Positions 35,794 through 53,895 are shown, counted from the stretch's first letter. The stretch: 64,000 bases of DNA from Acidimicrobiales bacterium (GCA_965116535.1 OZ220703.1:1807353-1871352), one strand, 5' to 3'. Numbers and translations are program-made. Notes: a model not told the origin generated them from the letters alone.

Positions 35794-38700
35794 TGCTCTG
35801 AGTTCAACTCCGTAGTGCCCTCGGGATCGGTCGCGGCTCGTTGGAGAGCCGCCTCCTGCTCGGCCATTTCAGCCCGCCCCGAGTCGATGAGATAGCGCTT
35901 GTGAACCTGATCGAAGCGGAAGTACTCGATCTGATCGCGGTCGCCAAAAAACTGGTCTTCGATGAACGGCTCGATGTTGTACTTCCAAATCCGGCCCATC
36001 GTCTCCTCGTCGAGGCCCTTCTTCATGAAGTGGCTCGGCCCCAAAAGCAGGTGAGGCCCGCCCAACTCTCTGTCGAGCTCGTCGTTGACTTGGGCAACGA
36101 GCTCGCCCACCCAACTCGGCTCGTCGTTGGCGGCCAGCCAGCGCTCAAGCAGCCCTTCTATCGGCCACCGATTGGGGAAGAACGGGATGAAGTGGAACCG
36201 GCGGCGCAGGGCGGCGTCCACAAGGGCGATGGAGCGGTCGGCGGTGTTCATGGTGCCGATGAACCACAGGTTTCGGGGTAGCTCGAAGGTATCCTCGGGT
36301 CGGTAGAGCGTGCGTACGCTTTCGTCGCGGTACTCCAAAAGGAACAGCAGCTCGCCGAATACCTTGGGCAAGTTTGCCCGGTTGATCTCGTCGATGATCA
36401 TCACATGCCGTCGGCCTGGGGTATCCGCCGCTCGCTGTGCCATGTCCGCCAATGGACCGGGTGTGAGCTCGTAGGTCATGTCGCCGCTGTCAGCTTGGGG
36501 TCGGTACCCCTCGAAGAAATCCTCATACGAACTAGAAGGATGAAACTGAACCAGCGCCCGCTGCCCCGGGTCAGGTGCCAATACCCTGGCAAGCTCCCGA
36601 GCCAGGTAGGTCTTCCCCGTCCCCGGCGGCCCGTAGAAGATCACCTGCCCCTTGTCTTCCAACAATTCGACCACGTCGTCTAGGAACATTCGGTCGACCA
36701 GTAGTTCCTCAGCGAGCTCATCTAGGATCTCGGCCTTGCCGTCGGAACCACCTGGGTCCGCATATGCATACCAGTAGAACAACTGCGACATCCCCCAGAG
36801 GTCGTCAGCGAAGTAAGGCTGAAGGCACTCGCGCAGCAGCCTGTTGGATTCCACCTGGATCTCGCCGCGCGAGCCAGTTGGTTCTTCAATTCCAAGGAGG
36901 GAGTGCATCCCCTCCTTCCCCCTATTGCCGCCGTAGGGGTATACGCAGAGATATTCATCTGGGTGCGTGATTGCCAGTAATTTCATGATCACCGATTCAC
37001 CCAGCCCCCTAATGCGGTACTGGTCATCGGTGAGCAGCCGGTCAATGCGCTCCGCGTCGGGGTCATTCCCCCAGCACAGATAGTGGAAGGATTCCATCAT
37101 ACGTTCGTACTCGGCTGGATCGGCATCGCGGAACGACCGGTTCAAACCTGACATTGGTCCTGTGGCTCCGTATTTGCCGCCATTCCAAATCCGCCGGATT
37201 TCGGCGCGGTCAGCCAGAGCTATTGACTCGGGGGCAAGTATCTCAGCGAAGCGACGCTGTTCTGCCTTGTGATCATCATCCCAGTCCCTCGGATAACCGG
37301 ACTCGGTACGGAATTGATCGACTAGGGAAGCAATTCGATCATCGCTGCCCTCTGGTGGGGGTTCCTTCCCCCCTGCAAGTGCCATTACCTTGCCAAATAG
37401 GGGCTTCAGTTGCGTGGCCGTCTCAACAACCGTGGCCGCCAAGTCGACATCGACGAACTCTTCCCGGTCGAACCAACGTCCGTAGACGAATTCTGCCCAG
37501 TGGGCCCCACGGATTCCGACATCCTCGCCAATTTGAGAGCTAGAACCGCCGAAAACTCGACAGTCGTCGTATTCGGCAGAAGAAAGCAGCGGCGCAACCT
37601 TGTCCATCCAGCCTTGGGGGGTTGTTCCTGGTCGTAGGGCAACTGCTACACCCTGGTCGTTCACCCATACCCTCATACTGAGCCCATTGTCAGCGGCCTC
37701 GTTGATTCGCCAGTCCACCCATAGATCGGGCCGGGCACGATTGGTTTTCGGCAACTTCACTTTGATTGGATGGCCGAGCGCTTCTGCGACAACATCGGCA
37801 AGCTGTTTGCCCCAATAGTCAGCGATGCTCAAAATGGCGTGTGCATTGATCTCCAGGTCGCCTTCCACCGCAGCCTCAGCGTCAAGACCAAACGCGGCGC
37901 GATCCGCCAATACTTCGTCTAGGAACACGGGGCGTTGGTTGTGCCACCATGCGGCGGTCGTCTCAAACTCGACATGGTCGGAAGTGAGTTCCCTAACCCG
38001 CTCGACAAACACCCGATACTTCTCGGGAGGATCATCCGGGAGGCTCTCGCCGGTTGAGAACTCAATGAATTGGGCTCCACTTGCCCACATCACAGGCCAG
38101 CGATCCCAGTCGGCCAGCGCCCAGAAATACGACAAGAGGAACGGCACACTTCCAGGGGCCGGGTATGCCCCAACCTTGATGGACTTCACATAGTCCACCA
38201 TTGACGTGAGCTTCTCAGCAGCTTCCTGATCGGAAGCTGGAACCGAGAGCGATTCAGCCAGCAGATGAGCGAATCGTTGGGGTTCGTCGGTTCGATCGTA
38301 TAGCTGGTTTAGCAGCAACTGTCCGGCGAACCCATTGAAGTCCAGTGTTCCCGGTGCTACAGCCCACTTCCGAATGTCCTTGATAAACCGGTCAAGGTCA
38401 CCGGTTCGTCGAAGATCAGCCAGCAGCCTGAGAGCTTCGTCCGCACTTTCCTTGAACCCGTCCGTGGCGTCCTTGGCCTGCTGCCGGTGGTCTTCGTCGG
38501 CAGCGAATCGTCCAACATGCGCCTCGTACCAAAGTTGGCGAAACTCAATCTCCCCTGGTGAGACACGCCCGGAGTCGGTGCCACCATCACCGTAACTGCT
38601 CGACTCAACTCGCAAGCACTCCCTAAGTGTCTGGCCATCGTCGTCTCGCCACTTGTCAAGCCAACTACTATGGCTACCTGTCAGAACTGCGCCAGCAGCG

Positions 38701-38978
38701 CTTGGCGAATTGAATTCCCAGTCACGGGTCAACTCCGCGCGGTCGCCATCGACAAAGAGAGTGCCGTCGTCCAGCAGTTCCTTGCGAAGCTGCCGACGGT
38801 ACTTGTTGGCATGTTTGTCGAACGACGCGTTGGACTCGGCACGACCTACCGCGCCGGCATGAACCAAGAAACCACCGTCGGGGAGCAATACACCGGTTCC
38901 GCTACAGCCAGAAAGCTCAAGACGGAAGACCGGGCTGCCGTCTAGGGAGTCTGGTTTGGTTTCTACCTGATCAGCCAC
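35790..38978 (-). CDS. mcrB: McrB-family GTPase with N-terminal DUF4357-like domain and long accessory region
   Basis: GPPGTGKT, QFHPSSSYEDFFEG, IDEINRAN, GTMNTADRS, ALRRRF; N-terminus FLVHAGA...FNSPSAAGAVLTG...WRDDDGQTL. Confidence 0.88.
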   Translation of the reverse strand: MADQVETKPDSLDGSPVFRLELSGCSGTGVLLPDGGFLVHAGAVGRAESNASFDKHANKYRRQLRKELLDDGTLFVDGDRAELTRDWEFNSPSAAGAVLTGSHSSWLDKWRDDDGQTLRECLRVESSSYGDGGTDSGRVSPGEIEFRQLWYEAHVGRFAADEDHRQQAKDATDGFKESADEALRLLADLRRTGDLDRFIKDIRKWAVAPGTLDFNGFAGQLLLNQLYDRTDEPQRFAHLLAESLSVPASDQEAAEKLTSMVDYVKSIKVGAYPAPGSVPFLLSYFWALADWDRWPVMWASGAQFIEFSTGESLPDDPPEKYRVFVERVRELTSDHVEFETTAAWWHNQRPVFLDEVLADRAAFGLDAEAAVEGDLEINAHAILSIADYWGKQLADVVAEALGHPIKVKLPKTNRARPDLWVDWRINEAADNGLSMRVWVNDQGVAVALRPGTTPQGWMDKVAPLLSSAEYDDCRVFGGSSSQIGEDVGIRGAHWAEFVYGRWFDREEFVDVDLAATVVETATQLKPLFGKVMALAGGKEPPPEGSDDRIASLVDQFRTESGYPRDWDDDHKAEQRRFAEILAPESIALADRAEIRRIWNGGKYGATGPMSGLNRSFRDADPAEYERMMESFHYLCWGNDPDAERIDRLLTDDQYRIRGLGESVIMKLLAITHPDEYLCVYPYGGNRGKEGMHSLLGIEEPTGSRGEIQVESNRLLRECLQPYFADDLWGMSQLFYWYAYADPGGSDGKAEILDELAEELLVDRMFLDDVVELLEDKGQVIFYGPPGTGKTYLARELARVLAPDPGQRALVQFHPSSSYEDFFEGYRPQADSGDMTYELTPGPLADMAQRAADTPGRRHVMIIDEINRANLPKVFGELLFLLEYRDESVRTLYRPEDTFELPRNLWFIGTMNTADRSIALVDAALRRRFHFIPFFPNRWPIEGLLERWLAANDEPSWVGELVAQVNDELDRELGGPHLLLGPSHFMKKGLDEETMGRIWKYNIEPFIEDQFFGDRDQIEYFRFDQVHKRYLIDSGRAEMAEQEAALQRAATDPEGTTELNSEQ

Positions 38979-39037
38979 GCCGGGAACTCTACTTGCGGAG
39001 CGTGACAGCTTGTCCCCACCGTATGGTCATAAAGCGC

Positions 39038-39382
39038 TCACTCGGTGGCCTTGGGGTGGCCGGGGTGGATGGCGGTCACCCAGACGGTCCTTTTGTCGTC
39101 GTCGATGCAGTACCAGATGCGACCGCCACCGGTTACCTCGTATTGCCACTGGGGCAGTTGGATGCCGTTTACGGTGTCCGTGGCAAGGCGACCTTGCAGG
39201 GGCTTTTGGCGCCTACTCCATCGTCGGGGATCGGCGGTAATGAGTTCCCAGGTCGTTCGGACGTTGTTGGGGGCGGATGCGCTGAGTTGTTCCCAGGACT
39301 TGGCGGCGTCGTTGCTGGCGAATCGGCAGTCCCACCCGCCATTGCGCGGTGGCGGGGCGACTCGGTCCCGGCGACGGGGCAT
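39038..39382 (-). CDS. putative type II toxin (RelE/ParE-like fold, 114 aa)
   Basis: basic protein; QWQYEVTGGGRIWYCIDD..VWV..GHPKAT; TGATG-coupled to the upstream antitoxin. Confidence 0.65.
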   Translation of the reverse strand: MPRRRDRVAPPPRNGGWDCRFASNDAAKSWEQLSASAPNNVRTTWELITADPRRWSRRQKPLQGRLATDTVNGIQLPQWQYEVTGGGRIWYCIDDDKRTVWVTAIHPGHPKATE

Positions 39383-39846
39383 CAATCGGCGGCTGGGGGT
39401 GGGAGGACGCGTCCGCCGTGGGTGATGGTGATGGGGGTGGTGAGAAGGGCAGTGAGTTCGGGATCGCTGAGTATCTCGGCCGTGTTCTCCCAAGAGTCGA
39501 TGGTGAGGTCGACTTGTCTAAAGTTCTGAACGCTGGCAGAGGCCAGAATGGTACGAGTCAGATCCTCGGCAAACTCCCGACGCTCTTCTGTCGAGAGGAA
39601 TTCGACCCAGGGGAAGGCGGTCTCAATGGCGGCATCCATAGCCTCGGGGGAGTCTGCTGCGATCTTGCAGAGAAGGCGGGCCAGACACTCGATAGTCTTG
39701 GCCCGGCTGATGTCGCTTGCGGCGAGGCTGAGGTAGAGGTCGGGGGCATTGCGGCGGCGCAGCACTACGTCGTGCTGGGCGAGGTCGGCAACTACCTCTT
39801 TGGGCTGTCGGAGGAATTCGGAGAAGGTGCGCTCGATGACCTGCAT
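39382..39846 (-). CDS. putative antitoxin, Phd/YefM-like N-terminus
   Basis: TFSEFLRQPKEVV...VVLRRRNAPDLYL; acidic C-terminus FPWVEFL..EF..W..TAE..SDPEL. Confidence 0.65.
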   Translation of the reverse strand: MQVIERTFSEFLRQPKEVVADLAQHDVVLRRRNAPDLYLSLAASDISRAKTIECLARLLCKIAADSPEAMDAAIETAFPWVEFLSTEERREFAEDLTRTILASASVQNFRQVDLTIDSWENTAEILSDPELTALLTTPITITHGGRVLPPPAAD

Positions 39847-39855
39847 CGAATCAGA

Positions 39856-39877
39856 ATATCTGAACTAATTCAGATAT
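39856..39877 (-). promoter_or_regulatory. palindromic operator of the TA operon overlapping the -10 box
   Basis: ATATCTGAA-CTAA-TTCAGATAT; minus-strand TATTCT lies 6 nt before ATG 39846. Confidence 0.65.
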
Positions 39878-39895
39878 CAAGCAACTATCGGCCAG

Positions 39896-40069
39896 CTAGC
39901 CCCTAGCGGGGCGTCCGAAGAAGGCGCTGCCTAACGCCACGCCCACGGCAGCTCCTATCCCTATGCCGACACCGACGTTGCCTAGTGCCGCGCCAATACC
40001 TGCACCAATACCGACGCCGAGCGCGATAGCCACTCCTAACCGGGGATTGCACTTCAAATTCTTCTTCAT
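39896..40069 (-). CDS. 57-aa glycine-zipper membrane peptide (not in the ORF track)
   Basis: MKKNLKCNPRLGVAIALGVGIGAGIGAALGNVGVGIGIGAAVGVALGSAFFGRPARG*. Confidence 0.65.
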   Translation of the reverse strand: MKKNLKCNPRLGVAIALGVGIGAGIGAALGNVGVGIGIGAAVGVALGSAFFGRPARG

Positions 40070-40111
40070 TGTCCGCTCTTCATGCCCCTTCGACGTCTGG
40101 AGAGGATTCGA

Positions 40112-40546
40112 TTAGCTCCGGGTGGCGAGCACCACGTTCTCAAGGATTTCGCTGTCGCCGGTGCGGACGTACCACTCCCAGGTGATGCCGTCGGGGCCGG
40201 CTACCCAGGTCTCGGTCTTCTCGGCGAAGCAGCACTGGGTATCGTCCACCCCGGAGGTGGCCAAGCCCGACTCGCTTAGGCGGCGCTCGGCGTCGAGCAC
40301 CTCTTCGGTGGTCTCGACCTCCACCCCCAGGTGGTTGATCGTGCCCCCGACCCCGTTGAAGCACCCTTCGTCGTCGTTGCACTCGTTGTCAGTCTCGAAC
40401 AGCACCAGCTTGAGCGGGGGCTGGTCGATGGCGAAGTTGGCATACCCCGGCCGGCGCCGGGCCGGCTCCACGCCGAAGAGACGGGAGTAGAACTCCACCG
40501 CCTCCTCAAGATCGGACACGTTCAACGCGAGCTGCAACCTCATCAC
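40112..40546 (-). CDS. ArsI/CadI-family VOC metalloenzyme
   Basis: RLQLALNV, FYSRLFG, PGYANF, INHLGVEV, CCFAEK, PDGITWEWY. Confidence 0.85.
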   Translation of the reverse strand: MMRLQLALNVSDLEEAVEFYSRLFGVEPARRRPGYANFAIDQPPLKLVLFETDNECNDDEGCFNGVGGTINHLGVEVETTEEVLDAERRLSESGLATSGVDDTQCCFAEKTETWVAGPDGITWEWYVRTGDSEILENVVLATRS

Positions 40547-40932
40547 GCCTCCTCTGCCATGAATTCTAAGCGGTTGCCGAACGAATCACAGATGTAGACC
40601 CGTTCGACCCCATCGGCGGTGTCCTTGTTGACCTCGTATCCCCGAGACTGGGCCCTTTCGGCAAGTCTGGCGACATCGGAGACCAGAAAGGCCACATGTC
40701 CCTTCTTGGCCGGGCGGAAGTCCGGATCGGCACCCAAATGCAGCTGTCCGCACGAGCCCTCCGGCAGCTCGAACCAGCACCCGCCCCGCTTGGCCAACTC
40801 AGGCGGCTTCGGAATCTCAACCAACCCCAGCAGCCCGCCGTAAAACTCCCTCGCCACATCTTCACCGCCCACAGGAATTGCCACCTGCACATGGACGATG
40901 GAGCTGACCAGCGGTTTCACGCCCCCGCTCAC
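40543..40932 (-). CDS. VOC/glyoxalase family protein
   Basis: HVQVAIP..FYGGLLGL.EIPKP..RGGCWF..LHLG..HVAF..DSFGNRLE. Confidence 0.87.
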   Translation of the reverse strand: MSGGVKPLVSSIVHVQVAIPVGGEDVAREFYGGLLGLVEIPKPPELAKRGGCWFELPEGSCGQLHLGADPDFRPAKKGHVAFLVSDVARLAERAQSRGYEVNKDTADGVERVYICDSFGNRLEFMAEEA

Positions 40933-40935
40933 GGT

Positions 40936-42228
40936 TCAGCCTTCTAATGGGATGTTGTAGCGGGCGATGTAGTCGGTGAATTGGGCCCGGACAGAGGACT
41001 CGTCCAAGCCGAGGGCGGCCGGGTCGTAAACGTGTTTGCCGAACTTATCCTTGGGCTTGTCGGCCAGGTAGGCGGGGATGGCGGCAGCCAGCTCATCGGA
41101 GAACTCCAAGCCTAAGCGGTGGTATACGGCCCGCACCGCCGGCACTGGGTTGCTCACCAGATCCCGGAACAACAGGTCGGCGATCTGGTCGTCGGGTACC
41201 TCTCCCGAGGCCCGCTGGCCCATGACCATGTCCATGATCATCTGGTAGGTGAACAGCATCGTCGGGCCGCTCTCACTCGGGGCAACCGAATCGCTACGCA
41301 TCCAGTGAAGGGTGGTGGTGAGGTTGGCCACCGAGCCCAGAAACCTGATCGGGTCGCGATGGGTCAGGATCACCCGGGCATCGGGGTAGGCGGCAAACAG
41401 GTCCGGAAGCGTTCCCATGTGGGCGGGCGACTTCAACAGAAACCGAGCCGGAGCGCCGTCGATGTGCTGCAAGGTCCGCAGGAAGTTCTTGTGCCACCGG
41501 TACACCGCGCCGAAGTCGAGGTCCGCTCCACGAGCGCCCAGATTGCCGATGGAGTGCATCATCGGCCAGTGCCAGCTGCGGAACTCCGGCTGGCAAAAGT
41601 GGACGCACTCCACCGGCAGGTCGCTGCGCAGCTCGTGCATGGTCATGAACTCGGGCTGGATGTCGGCCCAAAACTCCTGCTCAGGCTCACTGCACGCCAG
41701 CGCATCGGCCCCAGATTCGGGCAGCGTGCCCAGCGGGAAGTGGGCCTCATATCCCCGCACCCCCCGCAGGTTGGGGTCCAGCGCAAGTAGTTCCAGCAAG
41801 ATGGTGGTCCCGGTGCGGGGCGGCCCCGACACGAACACCGGCGCGGCAACGTCAGCCGCGAGGGCCTCAGGATTGGCCCGCCAATAGTCCACCATCCGCA
41901 GCCGGTTTTGCAGATTGCGAATGATCTCCCCCCGGGCGCTGAGCCGCCCCACCACATTCAGTTGGGCATCTTCATTCAGCGCACCGCACAGCGCCCGATA
42001 ACCAGCCTCCCAACCCGGTTCGTCGCCCAAGTCCGACAGCCCCACCGACTCGACAGCCACGGTCAGCATCTCGTCGGCGTCCAGACTCACCATGCGAGCC
42101 GGATCGCCCACCGCGGTGCCGAACAGGTTGACCCGCCGCACCCAGTCTGGTCGGGGCAGGTGGCCGGTATGGTCCATGGCGCCGAACACTTCCGAACGCG
42201 TGTCGGTCCCGGATTCGATTTCTTTCAC
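40936..42228 (-). CDS. sulfotransferase (Sulfotransfer_3 family)
   Basis: SGPPRTGTT PAPS loop, LLKSPAH, THRDP; overlaps the ligase stop. Confidence 0.87.
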   Translation of the reverse strand: MKEIESGTDTRSEVFGAMDHTGHLPRPDWVRRVNLFGTAVGDPARMVSLDADEMLTVAVESVGLSDLGDEPGWEAGYRALCGALNEDAQLNVVGRLSARGEIIRNLQNRLRMVDYWRANPEALAADVAAPVFVSGPPRTGTTILLELLALDPNLRGVRGYEAHFPLGTLPESGADALACSEPEQEFWADIQPEFMTMHELRSDLPVECVHFCQPEFRSWHWPMMHSIGNLGARGADLDFGAVYRWHKNFLRTLQHIDGAPARFLLKSPAHMGTLPDLFAAYPDARVILTHRDPIRFLGSVANLTTTLHWMRSDSVAPSESGPTMLFTYQMIMDMVMGQRASGEVPDDQIADLLFRDLVSNPVPAVRAVYHRLGLEFSDELAAAIPAYLADKPKDKFGKHVYDPAALGLDESSVRAQFTDYIARYNIPLEG

Positions 42229-43841
42229 AATTGACCTCTGCCTTGGTGCCGACGGAACTGAATGTCACGGTACCTGCTCAGCTCATCGGCCAACTGCTCT
42301 TTGAGGCTTAGCCGCTTTGCCTTGCCGGTGACGGTGAACGGCACGTCGTCACCGAAGATCACCACTTTGGGGCAGTAGGCGAAGTCGAGTTGCTCAGCGC
42401 AGAAGTCCAGGATCTCTTGCTCGGTTGCCGGCGAGGCCTGCACCACATAGGCCGCGATCTCCTCGCCGTAGTACCGGTTCTCGAAGGGGACAGCCAATCC
42501 AAATTGAACGGATGGGTGGGCGTTGAGCACCTCGTCTATCTGGAACGGTGAGATGTTGATGCCGCCGCGGATGATCAGCTCCTTGATGCGCCCGGAGATG
42601 AAGAAGAACGGCGTCCCATCTTTGTTGGCCTCCCAGAAACCCTCGTCGCCGGAGTGGAACCAGCCGCCCTCGAAGGCGCTAGCTGTGGACTCTGGACGTC
42701 CGGCATAGCCGCCCATCACCGTGGCGCCCCGTATGACGATCTCCCCGCGCCTTCCCGCCGGGCACTGGCGGCCATCGGAGTCCTGAATCTGCACCTCCAC
42801 GTGGGGAACAGCTCTGCCGATGCTCGGGAACCCGTAGTCCAAGTACCAGGATTGGCGTTCGTCATCGGCCATGACTGGCATCATCGTGGCCACTGCGGTC
42901 ACCTCTGATAACCCGTACAGATGCCTAACCGGGATGGCGAAGTCGTCTTCGAAGGTCACCACCGTTTCCATCATGAGCGGCCCCGCTCCGCACAGCACCT
43001 CTTGGAAGCACGTCGGCGACGGCCCGCCGCCATCCGCGATGAGGAACTCAAGCAGGGTCGGAACGAGGCTGGAGACGGTGGCGCCCTCCGACTCGACATC
43101 GGTCCAGAATCGGTCAGACCGAAAGCGGTCGCACAGCACGGCCGAACCGCCCACATACCACGATTGAAGGCACGAAACCACCAGGCCGTTGACGTGGTGG
43201 ATGGGGAGCACCACGATGACCCGGGATTCGGCGTCCCACCCGGTGGCTCGAGCGAGGGCATCGCTGTCGGTGATCAGGTTGCCGACGCTGAGCTCCACGC
43301 CTTTGGGCTCTCCGGTGGTGCCGCTCGTGTATACCCGCAGTGCCGGGTGCTCCCACCCGCTCGCTGCCGCTGGCGCGACTGCCCCCACCGAGGCCACCTC
43401 ATCGAAGGGCACGATGGCTACGCCGGTCGCCTCGTGCAACTGCTCCGCTCGGCCCGCCTCGGCGGGGCTGTGTATGAGGATCCGGGCGTTGGCATGGGAG
43501 AGGATGAACCCTTGGCGATCGGGCGTCTCGTGGGCATTCAGCGGCAGGTACACCCAACCGTGGGTCCAGCAGGCGAAGGCCACCGCCAGCGCATCGGCAG
43601 CGTTGCCGGCCAGCACTGATACCGAGTCGCCGAGCTGGATTCCCCGAGCCGCCAATCCTGCCGCCGTTTCCGCCACCTGGGCCAGCCATTGCCCTCGCGA
43701 CCATTCATGACGGGTTCCGTGCTCGTGGTCGATCTCAGTCAGATAGGTGGCGTCGGTACGGCCAACGGCCTCATCGGCCAAGAACTCGCCGAATGAGCTC
43801 CAACTCGGCTGCCAATCGTCGACCGGATGCGATGGGCTCAT
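42225..43841 (-). CDS. AMP-dependent (acyl/aryl-CoA) ligase
   Basis: YTSGTTGEPKG, YGLSE, FHSGDEG, RIKELIIRGG, TGK. Confidence 0.88.
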   Translation of the reverse strand: MSPSHPVDDWQPSWSSFGEFLADEAVGRTDATYLTEIDHEHGTRHEWSRGQWLAQVAETAAGLAARGIQLGDSVSVLAGNAADALAVAFACWTHGWVYLPLNAHETPDRQGFILSHANARILIHSPAEAGRAEQLHEATGVAIVPFDEVASVGAVAPAAASGWEHPALRVYTSGTTGEPKGVELSVGNLITDSDALARATGWDAESRVIVVLPIHHVNGLVVSCLQSWYVGGSAVLCDRFRSDRFWTDVESEGATVSSLVPTLLEFLIADGGGPSPTCFQEVLCGAGPLMMETVVTFEDDFAIPVRHLYGLSEVTAVATMMPVMADDERQSWYLDYGFPSIGRAVPHVEVQIQDSDGRQCPAGRRGEIVIRGATVMGGYAGRPESTASAFEGGWFHSGDEGFWEANKDGTPFFFISGRIKELIIRGGINISPFQIDEVLNAHPSVQFGLAVPFENRYYGEEIAAYVVQASPATEQEILDFCAEQLDFAYCPKVVIFGDDVPFTVTGKAKRLSLKEQLADELSRYRDIQFRRHQGRGQL

Positions 43842-43870
43842 GCCGACGCCGGACCGCGAGCTGCCCGCTG

Positions 43871-45289
43871 CTAAGCAGCCAGCACCGGGGGATGTTGGAG
43901 GTGGTGATCGGTGGCCGACTGGAGCGCGGCTCCACAGTTGAAGAGAGTCGACTCGGCAAACGGGCGTCCGATGAGCTGCACACCCACCGGCATCCGATCC
44001 GCATCGAAGCCGCCCGGCACCGAAAGAGCGGGAAGCCCGGTGAGCGACGGCAGCCCGGTGAACTGCATGATCGCCGAAAGCATGTCCTCGTCCTCGCCGT
44101 CGATGTTGACCAGTGTCTCCCCCAGCGGCGTGGCCGTAAACGGAAGCGTGGGGCACACAATCACGTCGACTTCGGCGTAGGCCGCCAGCATTTGCTGGCG
44201 CAACAGCGCCCGGTAGCGCTGGGCCTGCACATAGTGGACGGCCGGAATCAGCTCTCCCACCTGAAGCAGCAGCCTCACATCGTCGGCATAGTCGTCGCGC
44301 TGCGAACGCAGCGTGCGCTGGTGGTAGGTGCTGGGTTCCACCGACTCAACCGTCAGCTGGGCGGAGATGTTGCCCTCGATATCGGGGATGGACACCTCTC
44401 TCACCACGGCGCCGAGGTCCTGGAACACCTCGACCGCCTCGCGAACCGCCCTTTCCACCGCGGCCTGCATGTGGTGGAGCGAATAGCCCTCGATCAATCC
44501 GACTCGCAGGCCGCTGACTCCGGCGTCGAGTCCGGCCACGTAGTCGTCCACCCCGATATCGGCAGTGCCCGGATCACGGGTGTCGTGGCCGGCCAACGCA
44601 CCCAGAAGAACGGCGCAGTCCCGAGCGCTACGGGCCATGGGTCCCACCGTGTCCATGCTCCAGGCCAGCGGTATTACGCCGGCGTTGCTGACCCGCCCGA
44701 TGGTGGGACGCAGTCCAGTGATTCCGTTGAGGGCGGACGGCAGCCGAACCGAGCCCCCCGTATCGGTGCCCAGCGCGCCGAAACAGGCTCCGGCCGCCAC
44801 CGCCACGCCGGAGCCGCCACTGGAGCCGCCGGGCATCCGCTCCTGGTTCCAGGGGTTCTTCACAAATCCGAAGGTGACGTTGGCGGAGGTTCCGCCCCAG
44901 GCGAATTCGTGGAGGTTGGTCTTGCCGATGATGATGGCGCCGGCCGACCGCAGACGCTCGACCACCGTGGCGTCGATGGTGGAGATGTTGTTTTTGAGCA
45001 CCGCGCTGCCCGCAGTGGTCAGCTTGCCGGCTACGTGGATGTTGTCCTTCAGGGCGATGGGAACGCCGTGGAGCGGCCCGATCCGGTAGCCGGCCTGGAT
45101 CATGGCAGCCGACGCTTCAGCCACTTCGAGGGCATCTTCAAACACCGAGATGTAGGCATTGGTGTCGGCGATGGCGGCGGCCTGATCCAGACATGCCCCC
45201 ACCAAATCGACCGGCGAGACCTCTCCAGCGGCCACCTGCTGCGCGGCCGTGGCGAGATCCAGCGTCAGAAGCTCGCCTGCGCCCGTCAT
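43871..45289 (-). CDS. amidase-signature family amidase (GatA/AtzE-like)
   Basis: LHGVPIALKDN, GKTNLHEF, GGSSGGS, GTDTGGSVR (Lys-cisSer-Ser triad). Confidence 0.93.
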   Translation of the reverse strand: MTGAGELLTLDLATAAQQVAAGEVSPVDLVGACLDQAAAIADTNAYISVFEDALEVAEASAAMIQAGYRIGPLHGVPIALKDNIHVAGKLTTAGSAVLKNNISTIDATVVERLRSAGAIIIGKTNLHEFAWGGTSANVTFGFVKNPWNQERMPGGSSGGSGVAVAAGACFGALGTDTGGSVRLPSALNGITGLRPTIGRVSNAGVIPLAWSMDTVGPMARSARDCAVLLGALAGHDTRDPGTADIGVDDYVAGLDAGVSGLRVGLIEGYSLHHMQAAVERAVREAVEVFQDLGAVVREVSIPDIEGNISAQLTVESVEPSTYHQRTLRSQRDDYADDVRLLLQVGELIPAVHYVQAQRYRALLRQQMLAAYAEVDVIVCPTLPFTATPLGETLVNIDGEDEDMLSAIMQFTGLPSLTGLPALSVPGGFDADRMPVGVQLIGRPFAESTLFNCGAALQSATDHHLQHPPVLAA

Positions 45290-45525
45290 CCCGATACTCC
45301 CACCATCTCGTGAGGAGCCATCCCTGTGGTGGTGTTGAACGTCTGGGCCGGCATCAGCTCTAGTACCGACTGCATCCGGGTGCTGAGGGCCACGGCACCC
45401 GGCATCCAGGCGCTGAGCAATTCGGCCACCTCCTCGGCGTCGGCGTCAGAAAGCGGTAGATCGATGAGCGCAGCAGTTGCCCTCACGTCATCCACGGTGA
45501 GTTGGGAACTCCGCACGTCACTCAT
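45286..45525 (-). CDS. small GatC/AtzG-like amidase partner (79 aa)
   Basis: LTVDDVRATAALIDLPLSDADAEEVAELL resembles the GatC N-terminus; overlaps both neighbours. Confidence 0.65.
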   Translation of the reverse strand: MSDVRSSQLTVDDVRATAALIDLPLSDADAEEVAELLSAWMPGAVALSTRMQSVLELMPAQTFNTTTGMAPHEMVGVSG

Positions 45526-45970
45526 TTGGCCTCCCGTCGCCCGCTTGGGGCGGGACTACAGCCACCGGCTCGCGCGCCGGCGGGTGGTCGTGAGAATTGG
45601 CCGGTGTCGACAGCACTTCGGCGGTGCGCTGGTCGAGTTCGTCGGAATCAAGCATGCCCTTGTCCTTCAACAACTGCTCCAGCGCCTCCATCCACCGGTC
45701 GTAGTAGCTCCATCCGGTGGTGGTGTCGTGTTCCGATTCCCATGCCTGGATAGAGCGGATCAACTCACCCTGGAACTCAGGCCAGTCGAAAGCTCCGTCA
45801 TTGTGCATGGCCGTGGCGATCGCGAAGGCGCGGATCTCCCAGGCGTGGTTGAAGGCCACGTCTCCCGATCGGCGGGGGATCTCCTCGTTGTAGGGCAGGT
45901 CGTCCACCAGGCGGTCGAGCCTCTCCCGTACTTCCGGAGGGACCACCTCGTTCATCGGAGGTATGGTCAC
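45518..45970 (-). CDS. nitrile hydratase accessory/activator protein (P14K/NhlE-like)
   Basis: FNHAWEIRAFA, FDWPEFQ, YYDRWMEALE, C-terminal HDH; downstream of nthBA. Confidence 0.9.
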   Translation of the reverse strand: MTIPPMNEVVPPEVRERLDRLVDDLPYNEEIPRRSGDVAFNHAWEIRAFAIATAMHNDGAFDWPEFQGELIRSIQAWESEHDTTTGWSYYDRWMEALEQLLKDKGMLDSDELDQRTAEVLSTPANSHDHPPAREPVAVVPPQAGDGRPNE

Positions 45971-45981
45971 ACCGACGGCCT

Positions 45982-46605
45982 CTACTCCGGAACGCTCACA
46001 TCAGTCAGCCCGATCAGTGAATCACGGGTGACGAGGGCGGCGAGTTCCTCCTCGCTCCATCCCTCGGTGCCCTCCGGACGCCGGGGCAGAATCCAGTAGC
46101 GAAGCTCGGCGCTGGAGTCCCACACCTTCACTTCGACGTCTGGACCTGGATCGAACCCGAATTCGGCCATCACGCCGCGGGGGTCCCGCACGGTGCGGGA
46201 GCGGTATGCGGGGTATTTGTACCAGTTCGGCGGGAGCCCGAGCACGGGCCACGGATAGCACGAGCAAAGCGTGCAAACCACGATATTGTGCACGTCGTCG
46301 GTGTTTTCGAGGACGATCATCTCCTCGCCTTGGATGCCCCCGATGTCGATCTGGCGACAAGCCGCGGTCGCGTCGGCTAATAGGAGGAGCTTGAATTCGG
46401 GGTCGACCCAGGCCCTAGCCGTTGCCCTCGCGCCAAGGTGTGGTCCAACCTCATTCTCGAACACTGACGACATGTAGTCGATCGCGTCGGAGGCAATGAG
46501 GTCCTTCTCCACCAGGATCGACTCCATCGCCTTGACGCGGGCGGCGATCTCCTCGTCGCTTCGGGGGAAGGTTCCAGCTACCGGGTGTGGCCCTTGCGTT
46601 GTCAT
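45982..46605 (-). CDS. nthA: cobalt-type nitrile hydratase alpha subunit
   Basis: [12 protein letters not shown] claw (Thr/Tyr = Co-type), [13 protein letters not shown]. Confidence 0.96.
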
Positions 46606-46667
46606 TTTGGTCTTCCTGTCTATTGAGAATCGGGGGTGTCGAAGAATCCGGCCGTTCTAAACGCCAC

Positions 46668-47342
46668 TCAGGCGGGCAGTAGATAGGGCTCCCACAGGTC
46701 GATGTAGACCGTGGTGTTGGCCCCCTCGTCGCCCCATAGCTCTTCACCAGTGAACTCCACGGTGTACACGTACTCGGAGCCCTCGCCCTCGCCCATGGCG
46801 TTGGTGTCGGGATAGACGTAGGAGCCGTGAAGGGTGGCGATGGTCCCGGTGCGCCCCCGCACGTAGCCGGCCCGCCGGGTGTGGCCCAGCGAGGGCCCGT
46901 CGACCACGGTGACCCTGTCGCCGGTGGCGAACTTGGCGGGCTCATCGTTGGGGCGGTGGTAGTCGTCGCCGGAGGCGATCAGCCCCTTCAGCGTCTCCAC
47001 CATCTCCGGCTTGCTGCTGGGGGGAAGCTGTTCGTCGGGGTTGTCCATGTAGTACTGGGTGCGCCGCTCGAGCTCGCCGGCGTCGAAAATGCCCCTCTCT
47101 ACGCCGTAGTGGATCATGGAGTCGATCCAGTGCTCGTAGTACCGCGCCGTGATGTAGTCGTGCGGGGGGATCTGCTCCATGCCGTGGCGGAATTCGTCGA
47201 GGTTGAACGCTCCGGCCATGGCCATGGCTGGGAACATCACCAAGACCGTTTTCTCCCAGTCGGAGTGGAAGATGGGCTCGTCATCGGGATGGTGGATTGG
47301 GCCGAATCCATGTCGGCCCCCGAGGTCGTGAATACCGTCCAT
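46668..47342 (-). CDS. nthB: nitrile hydratase beta subunit
   Basis: MDGIHDLGG, DEFRHGMEQ, YYEHW, HTRRAGYVRG, DLWEPYL. Confidence 0.96.
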   Translation of the reverse strand: MDGIHDLGGRHGFGPIHHPDDEPIFHSDWEKTVLVMFPAMAMAGAFNLDEFRHGMEQIPPHDYITARYYEHWIDSMIHYGVERGIFDAGELERRTQYYMDNPDEQLPPSSKPEMVETLKGLIASGDDYHRPNDEPAKFATGDRVTVVDGPSLGHTRRAGYVRGRTGTIATLHGSYVYPDTNAMGEGEGSEYVYTVEFTGEELWGDEGANTTVYIDLWEPYLLPA

Positions 47343-47371
47343 ATCAAGCGCCTCCTCGTCTTAAAGCTCCG

Positions 47372-47415
47372 ACCCTAGACCGCGCCTCGTAATGTGTCAA
47401 TCAGCATCGACCTAT
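47372..47415 (-). promoter_or_regulatory. nthB promoter with shared operator
   Basis: TTGACA-N17-TAGGGT on minus strand; 24-mer ATAGGTCGATGCTGATTGACACAT covers the -35 box. Confidence 0.75.
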
Positions 47416-47448
47416 AGACCTGACCGCTGAGCAGGGGCTTGCGAAGCG

Positions 47449-48870
47449 CTACGCCACTACCTCATCGAGCACTTTGATCACGTCTTCTTCGGCCCGGGCC
47501 AAGTACAGCCGCTGCGTGGCCATGTTGCGCTGGCCGACGCTTTCCTGGTCGGATTTGCGGGTCCGCCAGTCGGAGGCAAGGTGGCTGGGACCGGCGTCGG
47601 GGTGGAGCGCGGCCAGCTCGAGGTACTGCCTGATCGCCTCGTACACGTTGGTTGACAGCGAAGACAGCGGGGGCGCCCAGTGCCCGAAATGCTCCCGATA
47701 GGCCCGCAGCAGCTCTTTGTTGCCCGGACTCGACACGCTCTGGAAGTAGTTGAGGGCAGTCCAAATGCCATTGCCGGCTGCTGGGCCCACATGCTCCAAG
47801 GTGCATTCATCCATCACCAGCGACACTCGGCTGGCCAGGTCCCGCAAACCGGCCTCGCTGGCCTGCTGTTGGAACGCGACCTCGTCGGCGCCCACCAACG
47901 ATGACATCACCACATCGGCGCCCGAGGCGCGGATGCTATCGATGATCGGGGTGAATTCCCGGGTTCCCAGCGGGGTGAAGCGCTGGGCCACCACCCGGCT
48001 GCCCGACGCGTCAAGGATTCTGGCCGCGGCCCGATGGGCTCCGAACGACCAACTGTATTGCTGGCCCACCAGGAACCAGCGATTTCCTCCGGTCTCGCGC
48101 TCCACGATCCGCGACAAAGCGGCCATCTGGGCCTCAGGGCGCTCCCCGAACCGGATCACCTTTTTCGCCTCCATGCCACCCTCGTTGATCACGGGATGCA
48201 CCATGAGCACGTCGTGGACTTCGGCGGCCGCGGTCGCAGCGGCGAAGCTGGCCGATGTGACGCAGGCGAAGATGGCCTGACAGCCGGCCTCGATGAGCCT
48301 GACCGTCTCCCTTCGGGCCTGGACGTGGTCGGTGGCGTCGTCGGCGATCAGCAACTCGACGGGACGTTGGCCCACACCCCCGCTGGCGTTGACCTGTTCG
48401 ACGGCGAGCAGTGCCATGTACTCCGCGGCCATCGAGTAGACGGCTCCCGACCCTGACTTGCTGGTCAAAAGGCCGATCCGCCGGCCCCCGGTGGGTGCGG
48501 GCAGCGGCAGCGACGCTCCTCGATGGCGGGCCAGCCATTCAATGCCCTCAGAGGGCACCTGGGCCCGAAACCGCACCCGGGTTTGCGCCGCGCCGGTCCG
48601 CTCGAATTTGATGCGAAGCTGCCCTCGCCACGGCTGATCGTGCTCGATCACGATCTCCCGCCCCGGCAGAACAACCCGCAAGCGGCCCAACACCTGGGCA
48701 TCGCAGCCCCCGGGTAAATCTATGGCCACCGCGTAGCCGGGCGCGACCCGGTGACACCGTGCCCGGAACATCCACCCCGCGTCGTCTCGCCTGCCGAATC
48801 GCTCGAATGCCTCTGCCGGCGTCAGATTGACGTCAGCCTCACTCGACAAGGTGACGGTCGCGGAAGTCAC
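47449..48870 (-). CDS. cytoplasmic AmiC/NhlC-like amide-sensing protein with N-terminal SRPBCC-like domain
   Basis: no signal peptide; RIGLL..SG..VEQVNASGGV..ELLIADD..TSAS..NEGG..GE.P type-1 PBP fold; N-terminal about 110 aa SRPBCC-like. Confidence 0.75.
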   Translation of the reverse strand: MTSATVTLSSEADVNLTPAEAFERFGRRDDAGWMFRARCHRVAPGYAVAIDLPGGCDAQVLGRLRVVLPGREIVIEHDQPWRGQLRIKFERTGAAQTRVRFRAQVPSEGIEWLARHRGASLPLPAPTGGRRIGLLTSKSGSGAVYSMAAEYMALLAVEQVNASGGVGQRPVELLIADDATDHVQARRETVRLIEAGCQAIFACVTSASFAAATAAAEVHDVLMVHPVINEGGMEAKKVIRFGERPEAQMAALSRIVERETGGNRWFLVGQQYSWSFGAHRAAARILDASGSRVVAQRFTPLGTREFTPIIDSIRASGADVVMSSLVGADEVAFQQQASEAGLRDLASRVSLVMDECTLEHVGPAAGNGIWTALNYFQSVSSPGNKELLRAYREHFGHWAPPLSSLSTNVYEAIRQYLELAALHPDAGPSHLASDWRTRKSDQESVGQRNMATQRLYLARAEEDVIKVLDEVVA

Positions 48871-49226
48871 CCCACTGCCAGCTTCTCCTCGAATTGGTCG
48901 CGGGGCTCAGCAGTCGAAGCCGAGGCACTCAACTCGTCTGCGGCCTGCGTCATGATCCGCTGAAGGAAATCGAGCGCCTCGCGCACCGAACCCTCAGCGT
49001 CAAGCCGAACATACCGGTAGCGACCCACCTTGCGCTCCTGCACCACGCCGGAGGTGCGGAGAACCCGCAGATGCGACGACACTGTGGTCCTGCCGACCGA
49101 GTCGATTTGCTCCGTGATCTCCGACACGGTGCACTCGCCGTGCTCGCTCAAAATGGCCAATATCTGCCGTCGAACTCCGTCGGACAGGGCATCGAAAGCG
49201 AGACTCTCAGTTGATGGGCGCACCAT
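48867..49226 (-). CDS. ArsR/SmtB-family repressor (NhlD/CblA-like context)
   Basis: FDALSDGVRRQIL..CTVSEI..TVSSHLRVLRTSGVV..GRYRY. Confidence 0.88.
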   Translation of the reverse strand: MVRPSTESLAFDALSDGVRRQILAILSEHGECTVSEITEQIDSVGRTTVSSHLRVLRTSGVVQERKVGRYRYVRLDAEGSVREALDFLQRIMTQAADELSASASTAEPRDQFEEKLAVG

Positions 49227-49290
49227 GAAATCCTACACCTCGACCCTTCTATCGGCGCACATCAATGTGCTACATCGAAACATGAACCGC

Positions 49291-50325
49291 TCACTTCACC
49301 AGATTCTGCATACGACCCCGGTCGATGGTGACCAGCACAGCCAAGATGACCACAAGACCCCGAAGGATGTCCTGGGTGAAGATTGACACCCCAGTCACAT
49401 TCAGACCATTGCTCAGCACCGTCAACAGTGCCACCCCCAGAAGCGTCCGGGGCATGCCGCCCACACCACCGGTTAGGGCGGTGCCCCCGATCACGATGGC
49501 CGCGATCGAGTCAAGCAGGTATTGATTGCCAAGGCTCGGGGTGGCCGATCCGAGCTGGAGCAGCAGGATTGCCCCTCCGAATCCGGCGGTGGCGCCCGAA
49601 ACCATGAACGCCAGTGTCTTGTACCGCCGCACGGGCACTCCGCTCAACGCGGCAACGGGTTCGCCTGCCCCGATGGCCACCAAATACCGCCCGAATCGGG
49701 TGTAGCGGTTCATGAACACCAGCAGCACCCACACGATGATGGCGGCCAAGAAGGTGTTGGGGACATCGGGGATCAACTCGCCGCGGGCCAGCCACTCGAA
49801 GGGCAGCTCGTCTACGAAGACGGCCCGGCCCGACAAGATGTGCAAAGTGATTCCGGTGAAGATGGAAAGCGTTCCCAGAGTCACAATGAATGACGGGAGC
49901 CTCAGCGCGATGGAGCAGAACGCGTTGACTCCTCCCAGCGCCATGCCGATGAAAATGGTGAGGATGAACCCGGCTGTGCCCCAGCTGTGATCAGAGATTA
50001 ACACCGCGGCCGCGGCGGCGGACAAGGCCGCGATGGCGCCGACTGACAGGTCGATTGATCCCATCAGCACCACCAGCGTTGCGCCAAGCGAGATCATCAG
50101 CAGCGGCCCGGCCTGGGTGAGCATTACGTTGAGGTTGGTGATCGAGATGAAGCGTGATTCGAAGGCGGTGAACAGCCCGATCAGCACCGGCAGCACCAGC
50201 ACCGGGACCAGTGGACGTCCCCATCGCTGGATGAACTCCACCGTGCTGAGCACCATATCGGTTGGGCGAGCAGCGGCCCCGTCAGGGGCGGCTGGCTCGG
50301 GATCCAGAGTCTCGTTGTCTGCCAT
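49291..50325 (-). CDS. sugar-type (CUT2/RbsC-like) ABC permease
   Basis: GSIDLSVG, LPSFIVTLG, TRFGR..AIG..A.LSGV, IAAIVIGGTAL.GG.G. Confidence 0.9.
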   Translation of the reverse strand: MADNETLDPEPAAPDGAAARPTDMVLSTVEFIQRWGRPLVPVLVLPVLIGLFTAFESRFISITNLNVMLTQAGPLLMISLGATLVVLMGSIDLSVGAIAALSAAAAAVLISDHSWGTAGFILTIFIGMALGGVNAFCSIALRLPSFIVTLGTLSIFTGITLHILSGRAVFVDELPFEWLARGELIPDVPNTFLAAIIVWVLLVFMNRYTRFGRYLVAIGAGEPVAALSGVPVRRYKTLAFMVSGATAGFGGAILLLQLGSATPSLGNQYLLDSIAAIVIGGTALTGGVGGMPRTLLGVALLTVLSNGLNVTGVSIFTQDILRGLVVILAVLVTIDRGRMQNLVK

Positions 50326-50337
50326 CCGGCCTCTTCC

Positions 50338-51897: not shown

Positions 51898-51941
51898 CGC
51901 TACGCTCTTTCCCCCCTCACCTCGGGTAGCGGAATGGTGGA

Positions 51942-51985
51942 ACTTTACGCGTGAAGCACTGACACGTCAACAATGATCGACGTAT
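51942..51985 (-). promoter_or_regulatory. internal promoter for ABC ATPase/permease with shared operator
   Basis: TTGACG-N17-TAAAGT; 24-mer ATACGTCGATCATTGTTGACGTGT. Confidence 0.72.
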
Positions 51986-52040
51986 CGGGCAGTCCCATTC
52001 AGCCCTCGAGGAGGCTGGTCAGCGGGCAGATTTCGATGGA

Positions 52041-53468: not shown

Positions 53469-53563
53469 TGTGGCCTTCCCCTCTGTCATTTTCTGTGCCC
53501 CACAAGAGTCGCGGAACCGCGTGATTCCCTTGATTCCCTTGGTATATGGCCAGATTTCTTGGA

Positions 53564-53607
53564 ACCTTACGCCCAATCTGCCAACACGTCAACAGCTATC
53601 GACGCAT
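53564..53607 (-). promoter_or_regulatory. substrate-binding protein promoter with shared operator
   Basis: TTGACG-N17-TAAGGT; 24-mer ATGCGTCGATAGCTGTTGACGTGT. Confidence 0.72.
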
Positions 53608-53622
53608 TTATCCAGTGGCGTC

Positions 53623-53667
53623 ACCCGTCGATACCCATTGACCTATTGGCCTTCCTGTGGTTAGCCT
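53623..53667 (+). promoter_or_regulatory. cbtB promoter (leaderless) with shared operator
   Basis: TTGACC-N18-TAGCCT, ATG 6 nt later; 24-mer ACCCGTCGATACCCATTGACCTAT. Confidence 0.7.
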
Positions 53668-53673
53668 TTCGCC

Positions 53674-53895
53674 ATGAACTCCTCTGCCACCCAAGCCTTT
53701 AGTCCTTCTTCTGACGGCCGAGTGGCGGTCGGCGGAAAATTGTCGATGGTCGAGTGGGCATTCATGGCCCTAGCGCTGTTCGCAGTGCACATCTTGCTGC
53801 AAGAGAACGGGGTCTTGTTCTCCGACCAAATTGCCCAATATCTGCACGAGTTCACCCACGACGCTCGACACTCACTCGGCGCTCCCTGCCACTAG
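53674..53895 (+). CDS. cbtB: cobalt transporter subunit CbtB
   Basis: single TM then YLHEFTHDARHSLGAPCH. Confidence 0.9.
   Translation: MNSSATQAFSPSSDGRVAVGGKLSMVEWAFMALALFAVHILLQENGVLFSDQIAQYLHEFTHDARHSLGAPCH

Follow-up and report, generated by a model that had tools for sequence, protein, structure and literature searches.

Whether a tight run of genes on one strand amounts to one pathway is the question raised by positions 40112-47342 of a 64,000-nucleotide (nt) stretch of DNA from an Acidimicrobiales bacterium (GCA_965116535.1 OZ220703.1:1807353-1871352), here called the window. Nine genes follow one another there, those for a nitrile hydratase and its accessory protein, a small protein, an amidase, an acyl-CoA ligase, a sulfotransferase and two VOC-family proteins. 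The initial annotation, made from the sequence alone, read them as one route for a complex hydroxylated or aromatic nitrile with sulfate conjugation. Comparison with relatives indicated that the string very probably consists of two units of separate history lying end to end, a nitrile hydratase cassette of 12.5 kb (approximately 42181-54735) and a sulfotransferase-VOC-ArsI/CadI trio (40112-42177), and that the nine-gene 'pathway' is most likely an accidental, lineage-specific operon fusion rather than a conserved system.

The window comes from a metagenome-assembled genome (MAG) of Candidatus Poriferisocius (Acidimicrobiia) from a sponge, 3.70 Mb in one contig. The earlier guess that the host is a symbiont of a marine invertebrate agreed with its relatives and with the sequencing runs. 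The close relatives of the sulfotransferase locus are MAGs of Candidatus Poriferisocius sp., Acidimicrobiales or Acidimicrobiia, and, of 18 sequencing runs listed for the window, 11 carried the label 'sponge metagenome', although most of the runs share few of its sequence words. The literature that turned up under Poriferisocius concerned a coral.

The nine genes and their spacing

All nine open reading frames proposed at the outset were confirmed on the minus strand with unchanged coordinates:

46668-47342, minus strand: nthB, nitrile hydratase beta subunit (TIGR03888, 248.7 bits; cut-off 152.2)
45982-46605, minus strand: nthA, cobalt-type nitrile hydratase alpha subunit with a CTLCSC metal site (TIGR01323, 281.8 bits; cut-off 249.85)
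45518-45970, minus strand: nitrile hydratase accessory (activator) protein (TIGR03889, 68.5 bits; cut-off 46)
45286-45525, minus strand: small protein of 79 amino acids, predicted amidase partner, GatC/AtzG-like (no family match; predicted complex)
43871-45289, minus strand: amidase-signature amidase, GatA/AtzE-like (PF01425, 396 bits)
42225-43841, minus strand: acyl-CoA (AMP) ligase, final gene of the cassette (PF00501 and PF13193)
40936-42177, minus strand, with a long frame to GTG 42228: Stf-like sulfotransferase of the 3'-phosphoadenosine-5'-phosphosulfate (PAPS) type (PF13469, 105.9 bits; gathering score 27)
40543-40932, minus strand: VOC/glyoxalase-fold protein (PF00903, 28.6 bits)
40112-40546, minus strand: ArsI/CadI-family VOC metalloenzyme (NF041414, 155.6 bits; cut-off 116)

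The ligase start at 43841 was set from a tblastn comparison of the relatives' loci. The spacing is as tight as had been claimed, with gaps of 62, 11, 29 and 3 nt. The other four junctions (accessory/79-residue protein, 79-residue protein/amidase, ligase/sulfotransferase and VOC/VOC) overlap by 4-8 nt.

Distribution of the two units in relatives

Orthologues were searched for in 24 genomes of the same genus and in 16 genomes from other genera of the order. For nitrile hydratase alpha the search was widened to all 39 other genomes of the genus. The surroundings of the sulfotransferase gene were scanned with one genome per species, which gave 25 loci with flanks of up to 10 kb, 21 of them close (at least 82% identity). 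Nitrile hydratase alpha was found in five of the 39 genomes, the same five as among the 24 drawn (G001, G009, G010, G012 and G020), so that six cassette-bearing genomes, including the one studied here, were available for comparison. Fourteen of the 24 genomes carried a sulfotransferase orthologue (82-91% identity), and nitrile hydratase alpha was not matched in ten of these 14. The four relatives with both units carried them unlinked. The distance was more than 1 Mb in the three that are single contigs (nitrile hydratase alpha at 2.76 Mb and sulfotransferase at 1.67 Mb in G001; 0.27 and 3.16 Mb in G020; 3.19 and 1.98 Mb in G010), and in G009 the two genes were on separate contigs.

The proteins of the window fell by tblastn into two conserved blocks, one running from the ABC (ATP-binding cassette) transporter ATPase through the ligase, present in all five cassette relatives at 78-97% identity, and the other being the trio. 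With blastn, the nitrile hydratase loci of the five relatives were collinear with the window only between 42177/42250 and 54672 (ends 54658-54672). The sulfotransferase loci of six relatives matched 40113-42180 and then jumped to 55920, or to 54736 in G020. The earlier view of the string as one unit beginning at nthB thus kept its tight gene order but not its start, as the conserved block reaches upstream to approximately 54735.

The trio keeps other company. A VOC gene followed the sulfotransferase gene in all 21 close loci and an ArsI/CadI gene was present in 20 of them, while nthA, nthB and the amidase gene were found in none of the 25 loci. Upstream of the sulfotransferase, 20 of the 21 close loci had a different acyl-CoA ligase. 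Its orthologue in the window, which shares 29-34% identity with the ligase of the cassette, lies beyond the cassette next to a dehydrogenase:

55920-57593, minus strand: second acyl-CoA ligase, native upstream neighbour of the sulfotransferase in relatives (PF00501, 331.5 bits; NF009233, 831.8 bits against 832)
54766-55923, minus strand: acyl-CoA dehydrogenase, native left neighbour of the trio's locus (four acyl-CoA dehydrogenase Pfam domains)

In three loci the dehydrogenase gene stood between the upstream ligase gene and the sulfotransferase gene: in L036 and L043 it immediately precedes the latter, and in L035 a carboxylase pair intervenes. The sulfotransferase and VOC genes had been proposed as members of the nitrile pathway. 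Their loci free of nitrile genes, the genomes with the trio and no matched alpha subunit, and the unlinked positions in the four genomes with both units all speak against this. The trio occupies this locus in relatives in which no nitrile hydratase was matched (after the other ligase in 20 of 21 close loci), whereas separate transcription of the trio, which the initial annotation had named along with it as grounds for giving up the proposal, is not likely in this genome.

Short stretches resembling the ends of the sulfotransferase gene (70-73% identity) were seen in two further genomes (G015:C1:1284374-1284541 and G018:C1:297661-297825). They look like remnants of the orthologue in genomes that otherwise have none.

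The junction between ligase and sulfotransferase

The long frame of the sulfotransferase gene contains a short piece of another gene:

42178-42228, minus strand: remnant of 17 codons of a methylcrotonyl-CoA carboxylase beta gene, in frame with the sulfotransferase ATG (junction alignment)

From GTG 42228 onwards, these 17 codons correspond to the N-terminus of a 540-residue carboxyltransferase of G012; the N-termini compared were those of G012, G001 and L035. In G012 the ligase stop falls within the start of the carboxyltransferase gene, and a biotin carboxylase/carrier gene comes next. This carboxyltransferase is of the methylcrotonyl-CoA type (582-625 bits with structures of that type, against approximately 225 bits for propionyl-CoA carboxylase beta). 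The sulfotransferase orthologues with 82-91% identity align from residue 8-18 of the long frame, most of them from residue 17 or 18, and the relatives' proteins begin at ATG 42177, not at GTG 42228. Locus L035, which has no cassette, has the order ligase, dehydrogenase, carboxylase beta, carboxylase alpha, sulfotransferase, VOC, extra gene, ArsI/CadI. Given the remnant codons and the arrangement in G012, the genome studied here most likely lost approximately 3.6 kb including the carboxylase genes, with codon 17 joined in frame to the sulfotransferase gene. Another carboxylase beta copy, 80% identical, lies elsewhere in this genome.

The sulfotransferase may also be translated from GTG 42228, in which case its frame would overlap the ligase stop. 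From the ligase stop to ATG 42177 there are only 47 nt.

Authenticity of the junction and expression of the trio

The junction was present in independent assemblies. A 13477-nt contig of run X1 covers 41721-55197, including both ends of the cassette, and a 12297-nt contig of run X2 covers 40152-52448, each with no differences from the window; the runs come from two studies, and one of them may be the source sample. A 257-nt contig from a metatranscriptome run of a third study (X7) matched 42074-42330 with no differences and is specific to the junction. Pieces from X7 over the cassette genes carry mismatches and may stem from relatives, so that the depth of this run was left out of account. The join is real.

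Here the trio stands without the DNA that precedes it in relatives. A generic scan for promoters and terminators over 39000-49500 gave one promoter-like and three terminator-like sites, fewer than in shuffled sequences, and none of them lay at the ligase/sulfotransferase junction or at the promoter-like element before nthB. Since the native upstream DNA has been lost and no terminator-like site was found at the junction, read-through would be the likeliest source of trio expression, and we lean towards the view that the trio is expressed in this way from the nitrile operon.

Location and mobility of the cassette

The cassette occupies several sites among the relatives. In G009 a transfer-messenger RNA (tmRNA) gene (L022:5915-6300) has its 3' end 37 nt from the ligase stop. 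In G020 the cassette lies approximately 2 kb from the tmRNA gene (L020:3958-4343), with fibronectin-III/cadherin-like genes between them, and in G001 it lies near smpB. A tmRNA gene is a classic site for islands. In G010 a third site is used, between sequences that are 650 bp apart in the genome studied here. A contig of G012, collinear with window positions 42177-63999, carries the cassette at the same site as in the window, between the dehydrogenase gene and the carboxylase pair. The ligase gene is the last of the string in G001, G009, G010 and G020, and the next gene is convergent in G001 and G020, the two in which it was read. Given these several sites (tmRNA, smpB and the third site), the cassette is taken to be movable, and it appears to be a self-contained, relocatable unit. 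By eye, no target-site duplication or microhomology was seen at either end of the cassette, and Rfam gave no matches at gathering scores across 39000-58000. Between G001 and G012 the carboxylase pair beside the cassette differs in orientation, being inverted in G001 (L019:2668-6255 against L023:1-2981).

The nitrile hydratase cassette

Nitrile hydratases with threonine at X of the CXLCSC motif are of the cobalt type. The alpha subunit encoded here has CTLCSC, and its nearest solved relatives in the PDB are cobalt-type alpha subunits (286 bits, against 194 bits for the iron type), which bears out the cobalt assignment of the initial annotation. CXLCSC is given as the metal-binding motif of nitrile hydratase alpha, and the gene order beta-alpha-activator as typical of cobalt nitrile hydratases, in PMC3511329. 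The order beta-alpha-accessory is found here as well, with the accessory gene directly after the alpha gene. The gene products are thus assigned, by sequence, to a cobalt-type nitrile hydratase with its accessory protein. The proposed core route from nitrile through amide and acid to acyl-CoA also stood, in that nthB, nthA and the accessory, amidase and ligase genes are linked in all five cassette relatives. The order and adjacency of the nitrile hydratase, amidase and ligase genes are kept there at 78-97% protein identity.

The amidase scored below the cut-offs of the AtzE models (NF006631, 346.6 bits against 461; TIGR02715, 322.1 against 425.75), and its PDB matches included GatA (4WJ3, 299 bits) and AtzE (6C62, 228 bits). 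The gene for the 79-residue protein overlaps the amidase start by 4 nt. The protein matched no Pfam family at E-values up to 0.001 and gave no meaningful PDB match at E-values up to 10. Its 31 homologues, all 55-100% identical, have no functional name among them. A comparison with the GatC of the same genome by hhalign was not significant (probability 3.7%, E-value 0.011, 28 columns). The sole family match, to TetR_C, was at chance level (E-value 0.03) and was rejected. The predicted complex of the 79-residue protein with the amidase scored 0.84, against 0.01 for the best control; the mark for this score is reached by 116 of 157 solved complexes and by two of 215 mismatched pairs. The prediction runs agreed in at least 95% of contacts, and the predicted local distance difference test (pLDDT) value of the small partner was at least 74. 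The label 'GatC-like' given to this protein at first therefore found no significant sequence support from Pfam, PDB or hhalign, but was favoured by a predicted complex that passed its controls.

The ligase adjoins the amidase in all five cassette relatives. Its best PDB match was oxalate-CoA ligase (5IE0, 184 bits), with oxalate- and malonyl-CoA ligases being the nearest. When metagenome contigs were scanned with this ligase, 39 loci came up, none of them beside a nitrile hydratase gene, and they had no bearing on the junction. A single locus, on a 3-kb contig, reached 62-63% identity, against 41% or less for all others; L052 had a 33%-identical amidase paralogue.

Upstream of nthB, the cassette has the following features:

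53946-54716, plus strand: cbtA, cobalt transporter subunit, at the right end of the cassette (PF09490, 157.6 bits)
53674-53895, plus strand: small, cbtB-like membrane subunit of the cobalt transporter, encoded divergently from the main strand of the cassette (PF09489 CbtB, 26.7 bits against a cut-off of 27, E-value 6.4e-06)
52041-53576, minus strand: sugar-type substrate-binding protein (PF13407, 78.4 bits)
50338-51897, minus strand: double-domain ABC ATPase, RbsA-like (PF00005 twice)
49291-50325, minus strand: ABC permease, BPD_transp_2 (PF02653, 121.6 bits)
48867-49226, minus strand: ArsR/SmtB-family regulator, with a 4-nt overlap with the next gene (NF033788, 67.2 bits; cut-off 55)
47449-48870, minus strand: AmiC/urea-binding-like protein, putative cytoplasmic amide sensor (PF13458, 196.3 bits, from residue 131)
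47372-47400, minus strand: promoter-like TTGACA-17 nt-TAGGGT, 29 nt upstream of the nthB ATG

The cassette thus runs from cbtBA through the ABC transporter, the ArsR-family and AmiC-like genes, nthB-nthA-accessory and the gene of the 79-residue protein to the amidase and ligase genes. The double ATPase is 92-94% identical in all five cassette relatives, and the NCBIfam models for sugar ABC transporters scored it below their cut-offs. The substrate-binding protein gave a weak TAT_signal match (E-value 0.016, 15.5 bits against a cut-off of 22.7), and the true start of its gene is probably internal to the frame at 52041-53576. An importer of the sugar type suggests a polar substrate. In comparison with the PDB, the AmiC-like protein matched AmiC (1PEA) with 66 bits and urea-binding proteins with 80-115 bits. 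It carries an extra N-terminal region of approximately 125 residues, its first 127 residues have no Pfam match at E-values up to 1, and no signal peptide was seen by eye in the translation.

The sequence TTGACA-17 nt-TAGGGT is invariant in all six cassette-bearing genomes, and the sequence just upstream of it is variable. A motif GGTCTA(T/G)(A/G)GGTC occurs twice within 47372-47425, upstream of the -35 hexamer and over the -10 hexamer. Both copies are invariant in the six genomes, and the repeated motif may be an operator. We take the conserved element before nthB as the footprint of a promoter/operator. The 'one clear promoter' of the initial annotation is upheld as a phylogenetic footprint only, the generic scan not having listed the element.

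At the other end of the cassette, a 41-nt tandem duplication with one mismatch (window 53880-53960) covers the cbtB stop and the cbtA start and gives two possible starts for cbtA, at approximately 53906 and 53946. An aldoxime-dehydratase-family gene (PF13816, 187 bits) was observed at G000:C1:3248882-3249616 (L049), 1.4 Mb from the cassette. The family was found in this genome and in six of the 24 relatives drawn, but in none of the five relatives with nitrile hydratase, and this genome alone of the 25 searched in the genus holds it together with nitrile hydratase. Given the distance and the lack of co-occurrence, a linked aldoxime route was not indicated.

The sulfotransferase-VOC-ArsI/CadI trio

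Of the sulfotransferase's PDB matches, 2Z6V (120 bits) and 2ZQ5 are mycobacterial proteins deposited as 'putative uncharacterized protein', which we take to be Stf9 and Stf1. A PRTGTT loop, presumably the phosphosulfate-binding motif, and an RDP motif are visible in the translation. These features and the Sulfotransfer_3 match place the protein, as far as its sequence can tell, among the PAPS-dependent sulfotransferases as first annotated. A gene for adenosine-5'-phosphosulfate (APS) kinase is present in this genome. The 3.7-Mb genome holds seven matches to the sulfotransferase family, the other six with 27-35% identity, and most genomes of the genus carry several members. The neighbours of three more distant sulfotransferase orthologues (60-64% identity) were unrelated, with no shared context and no clue to the acceptor. 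The linkage of the trio is accordingly recognised only within the genus.

The ArsI/CadI protein reached the NF041414 equivalog cut-off and keeps the vicinal cysteine pair. It matched 6XCK and 5C4P with 126-128 bits, CC aligned to CC. We take the NF041414/5C4P group to be that of ArsI, with C-As lyase chemistry, and this gene points to metalloid chemistry rather than to nitriles.

An extra gene of approximately 1.27 kb lies between the VOC genes in 11 of the 21 close loci. In the one locus tested, L024, it encodes a P450 of 398 amino acids (11625-12821), and it is missing from the genome studied here. Downstream of the trio, the window encodes an McrB-like AAA protein with DUF4357 (35790-38978, 1062 amino acids), which is found at the same place in some relatives (59-74% identity) and is absent in others.

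Comparison with known systems

The low-molecular-mass cobalt nitrile hydratase cluster of Rhodococcus rhodochrous J1 has the order nhlD-nhlC-nhlB-nhlA-nhlE-nhlF-amdA. As there, an ArsR-like regulator and an AmiC-like protein precede the beta, alpha and accessory genes in the cassette, and a cobalt importer and an amidase are encoded within the cluster. Unlike in strain J1, the importer is CbtAB rather than a NiCoT permease, the AmiC-like protein is extended at its N-terminus, the cluster also encodes an ABC transporter, a predicted small amidase partner and an acyl-CoA ligase, and the host is an uncultured sponge-associated member of the Acidimicrobiia. NhlF is described as a cobalt importer in a passage of PMC7767326. 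A nitrile-amide-acid-acyl-CoA route with an acyl-CoA synthetase has been reported for Pseudomonas chlororaphis B23 (Hashimoto et al. 2005, as mentioned in PMC3511329). The cassette resembles that system in its clustered nitrile hydratase, amidase and ligase genes for a route from nitrile to acyl-CoA. The B23 cluster is of the iron type and includes an aldoxime dehydratase gene, whereas the cassette is of the cobalt type and the aldoxime-dehydratase-family gene is remote from it.

AtzG is needed for soluble AtzE according to a portion of PMC6219798. As in the AtzE-AtzG and GatA-GatC pairs (PMC6219798, same portion), the amidase-signature gene here directly follows the gene of a small, putative non-catalytic partner. 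Unlike them, the amidase scores below the AtzE cut-off, the 79-residue protein has no significant GatC match, and the context is that of nitriles and not of cyanuric acid or tRNA. The ArsI/CadI protein agrees with its family in its score above the equivalog cut-off and its aligned vicinal cysteine pair; unlike its family, it contains an insertion of 10 residues, and its gene, next to which no ars genes were seen, follows those of a sulfotransferase and a VOC protein. The sulfotransferase shares its fold family (Sulfotransfer_3) with the mycobacterial Stf-type proteins 2Z6V and 2ZQ5 and aligns with them over nearly the full length, but with E-values of only 1e-29 to 1e-34, and it is one of the seven matches in its genome.

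The cassette is a cobalt nitrile hydratase cluster of a known kind. Less usual are its CbtAB cobalt importer, the predicted small amidase partner, the several locations in sponge symbionts and the in-frame scar that added an unrelated trio.

Proposed function and history

We propose that CbtAB would import cobalt and that the sugar-type ABC transporter would import a polar substrate, with the ArsR-family regulator and the cytoplasmic AmiC-like sensor controlling the conserved promoter before nthB. With the accessory protein serving for maturation, the cobalt nitrile hydratase would convert the nitrile to the amide. The GatA/AtzE-like amidase, held by its small GatC-like partner, would convert the amide to acid and ammonia, and the cassette ligase would convert the acid to the acyl-CoA. 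The trio is a resident of the genus, normally situated after a leucine/isovalerate-like operon that has the other ligase and in some cases also the dehydrogenase and the methylcrotonyl-CoA carboxylase pair. Into this operon, upstream of the carboxylase genes, the cassette would have been inserted in the lineage that includes this genome and G012. Later, and in this genome only, the deletion of approximately 3.6 kb would have brought the sulfotransferase start into frame behind codon 17 of the carboxylase beta gene. The nitrile operon would now probably drive transcription of the trio, perhaps with translational coupling, while the trio remained outside its chemistry.

Several observations weigh against this account or limit it. 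The cassette stands at this locus in two of the six cassette-bearing genomes (this one and G012), so its neighbourhood here is not unique. The G012 contig ends inside the carboxylase alpha gene, before any sulfotransferase gene that may follow there, and no sulfotransferase orthologue was found in the G012 genome, which is 68% complete. The order of insertion and then deletion rests on parsimony, an ancestral cassette with losses being the alternative. The X7 contig is a weak hint of transcription, as it may stem from carried-over DNA, and contigs cannot show a single transcript. The tight string of nine genes and the contig from an RNA library that bridges the junction may leave room for co-expression and for some functional coupling. 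The pass of the predicted amidase complex may mirror likeness to the solved GatCA and AtzEG complexes and not real binding. The sequences suggest only a class of substrate for the cassette.

Alternative explanations

The cassette may instead have stood here ancestrally, ahead of the carboxylase pair and the trio, and have been lost or moved in most species; the neighbourhood would then be old and might have a functional meaning, a branched-chain nitrile being turned into an acyl-CoA and carboxylated. The site shared by this genome and G012 agrees with this, as do the overlap of the ligase stop with the carboxyltransferase start in G012 and the carboxylase pair that G001 keeps, though inverted, beside its relocated cassette. 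We regard it as unlikely, as 34 of the 39 other genomes of the genus have no nitrile hydratase alpha, the cassette lies beside the tmRNA gene in G009 and G020, and in L035 the carboxylase pair stands at the locus with no cassette. It would, moreover, link the cassette to the carboxylase and not to the sulfotransferase.

It is very unlikely that the junction represents an early natural operon fusion that already functions, with the trio under an amide- or nitrile-responsive promoter, possibly coupled in translation to the ligase through the 17-codon remnant, and the symbiont sulfating or otherwise altering the products of a host nitrile. If true, such an early fusion would be a first step towards a sulfation pathway and might bear on the source of the nitrile-hydrating activity in sponges.

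A single dedicated pathway of all nine genes, in which a hydroxylated or aromatic nitrile (for example, a bromotyrosine-derived one of the sponge) would be hydrated, hydrolysed, activated and sulfated, with the VOC enzymes acting on the ring, was judged very improbable. It draws on the tight same-strand string, with either a 4-nt overlap or the 47-nt gap at the ligase/sulfotransferase junction, on the RNA-library contig over that junction, and on the APS kinase gene, given which PAPS should be available. The host group is sponge-associated, and a section of PMC3766881 reports an aeroplysinin-1 nitrile hydratase activity of unknown origin in a sponge. The sponge enzyme, however, is given in the same section of PMC3766881 as manganese-dependent, with peptides lacking homology to known nitrile hydratases, and no link is drawn here between it and the cassette. 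The nine-gene pathway is further opposed by the absence of nitrile hydratase genes from all 25 sulfotransferase loci, by the ten of 14 trio-bearing genomes without nitrile hydratase alpha and the unlinked units in the four that have both, by a junction that is a deletion scar inside another gene, and by a final gene whose product scores as an ArsI/CadI equivalog and retains the cysteine pair, pointing to metalloid chemistry.

An assembly chimera, conceivable for a MAG whose two units differ in history, is a negligible prospect, as contigs of two runs from two studies cross the junction without differences, one of them crossing both cassette ends, and a third run holds the junction sequence exactly (with the reservation that one of the runs may be the source sample).

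Significance

The separate history of cassette and trio illustrates how a tight same-strand gene string can mislead, as relatives split it into a movable cassette and a resident trio. Of the initial reading, the nitrile core and the habitat are supported and the sulfation pathway is not; gene order alone is an insufficient ground for pursuing the sulfation idea. The small partner may matter where nitrile-hydratase-linked amidases are insoluble when expressed alone. The cassette itself is a compact and complete set of parts from an uncultured sponge symbiont, and a candidate for expression and nitrile screening.

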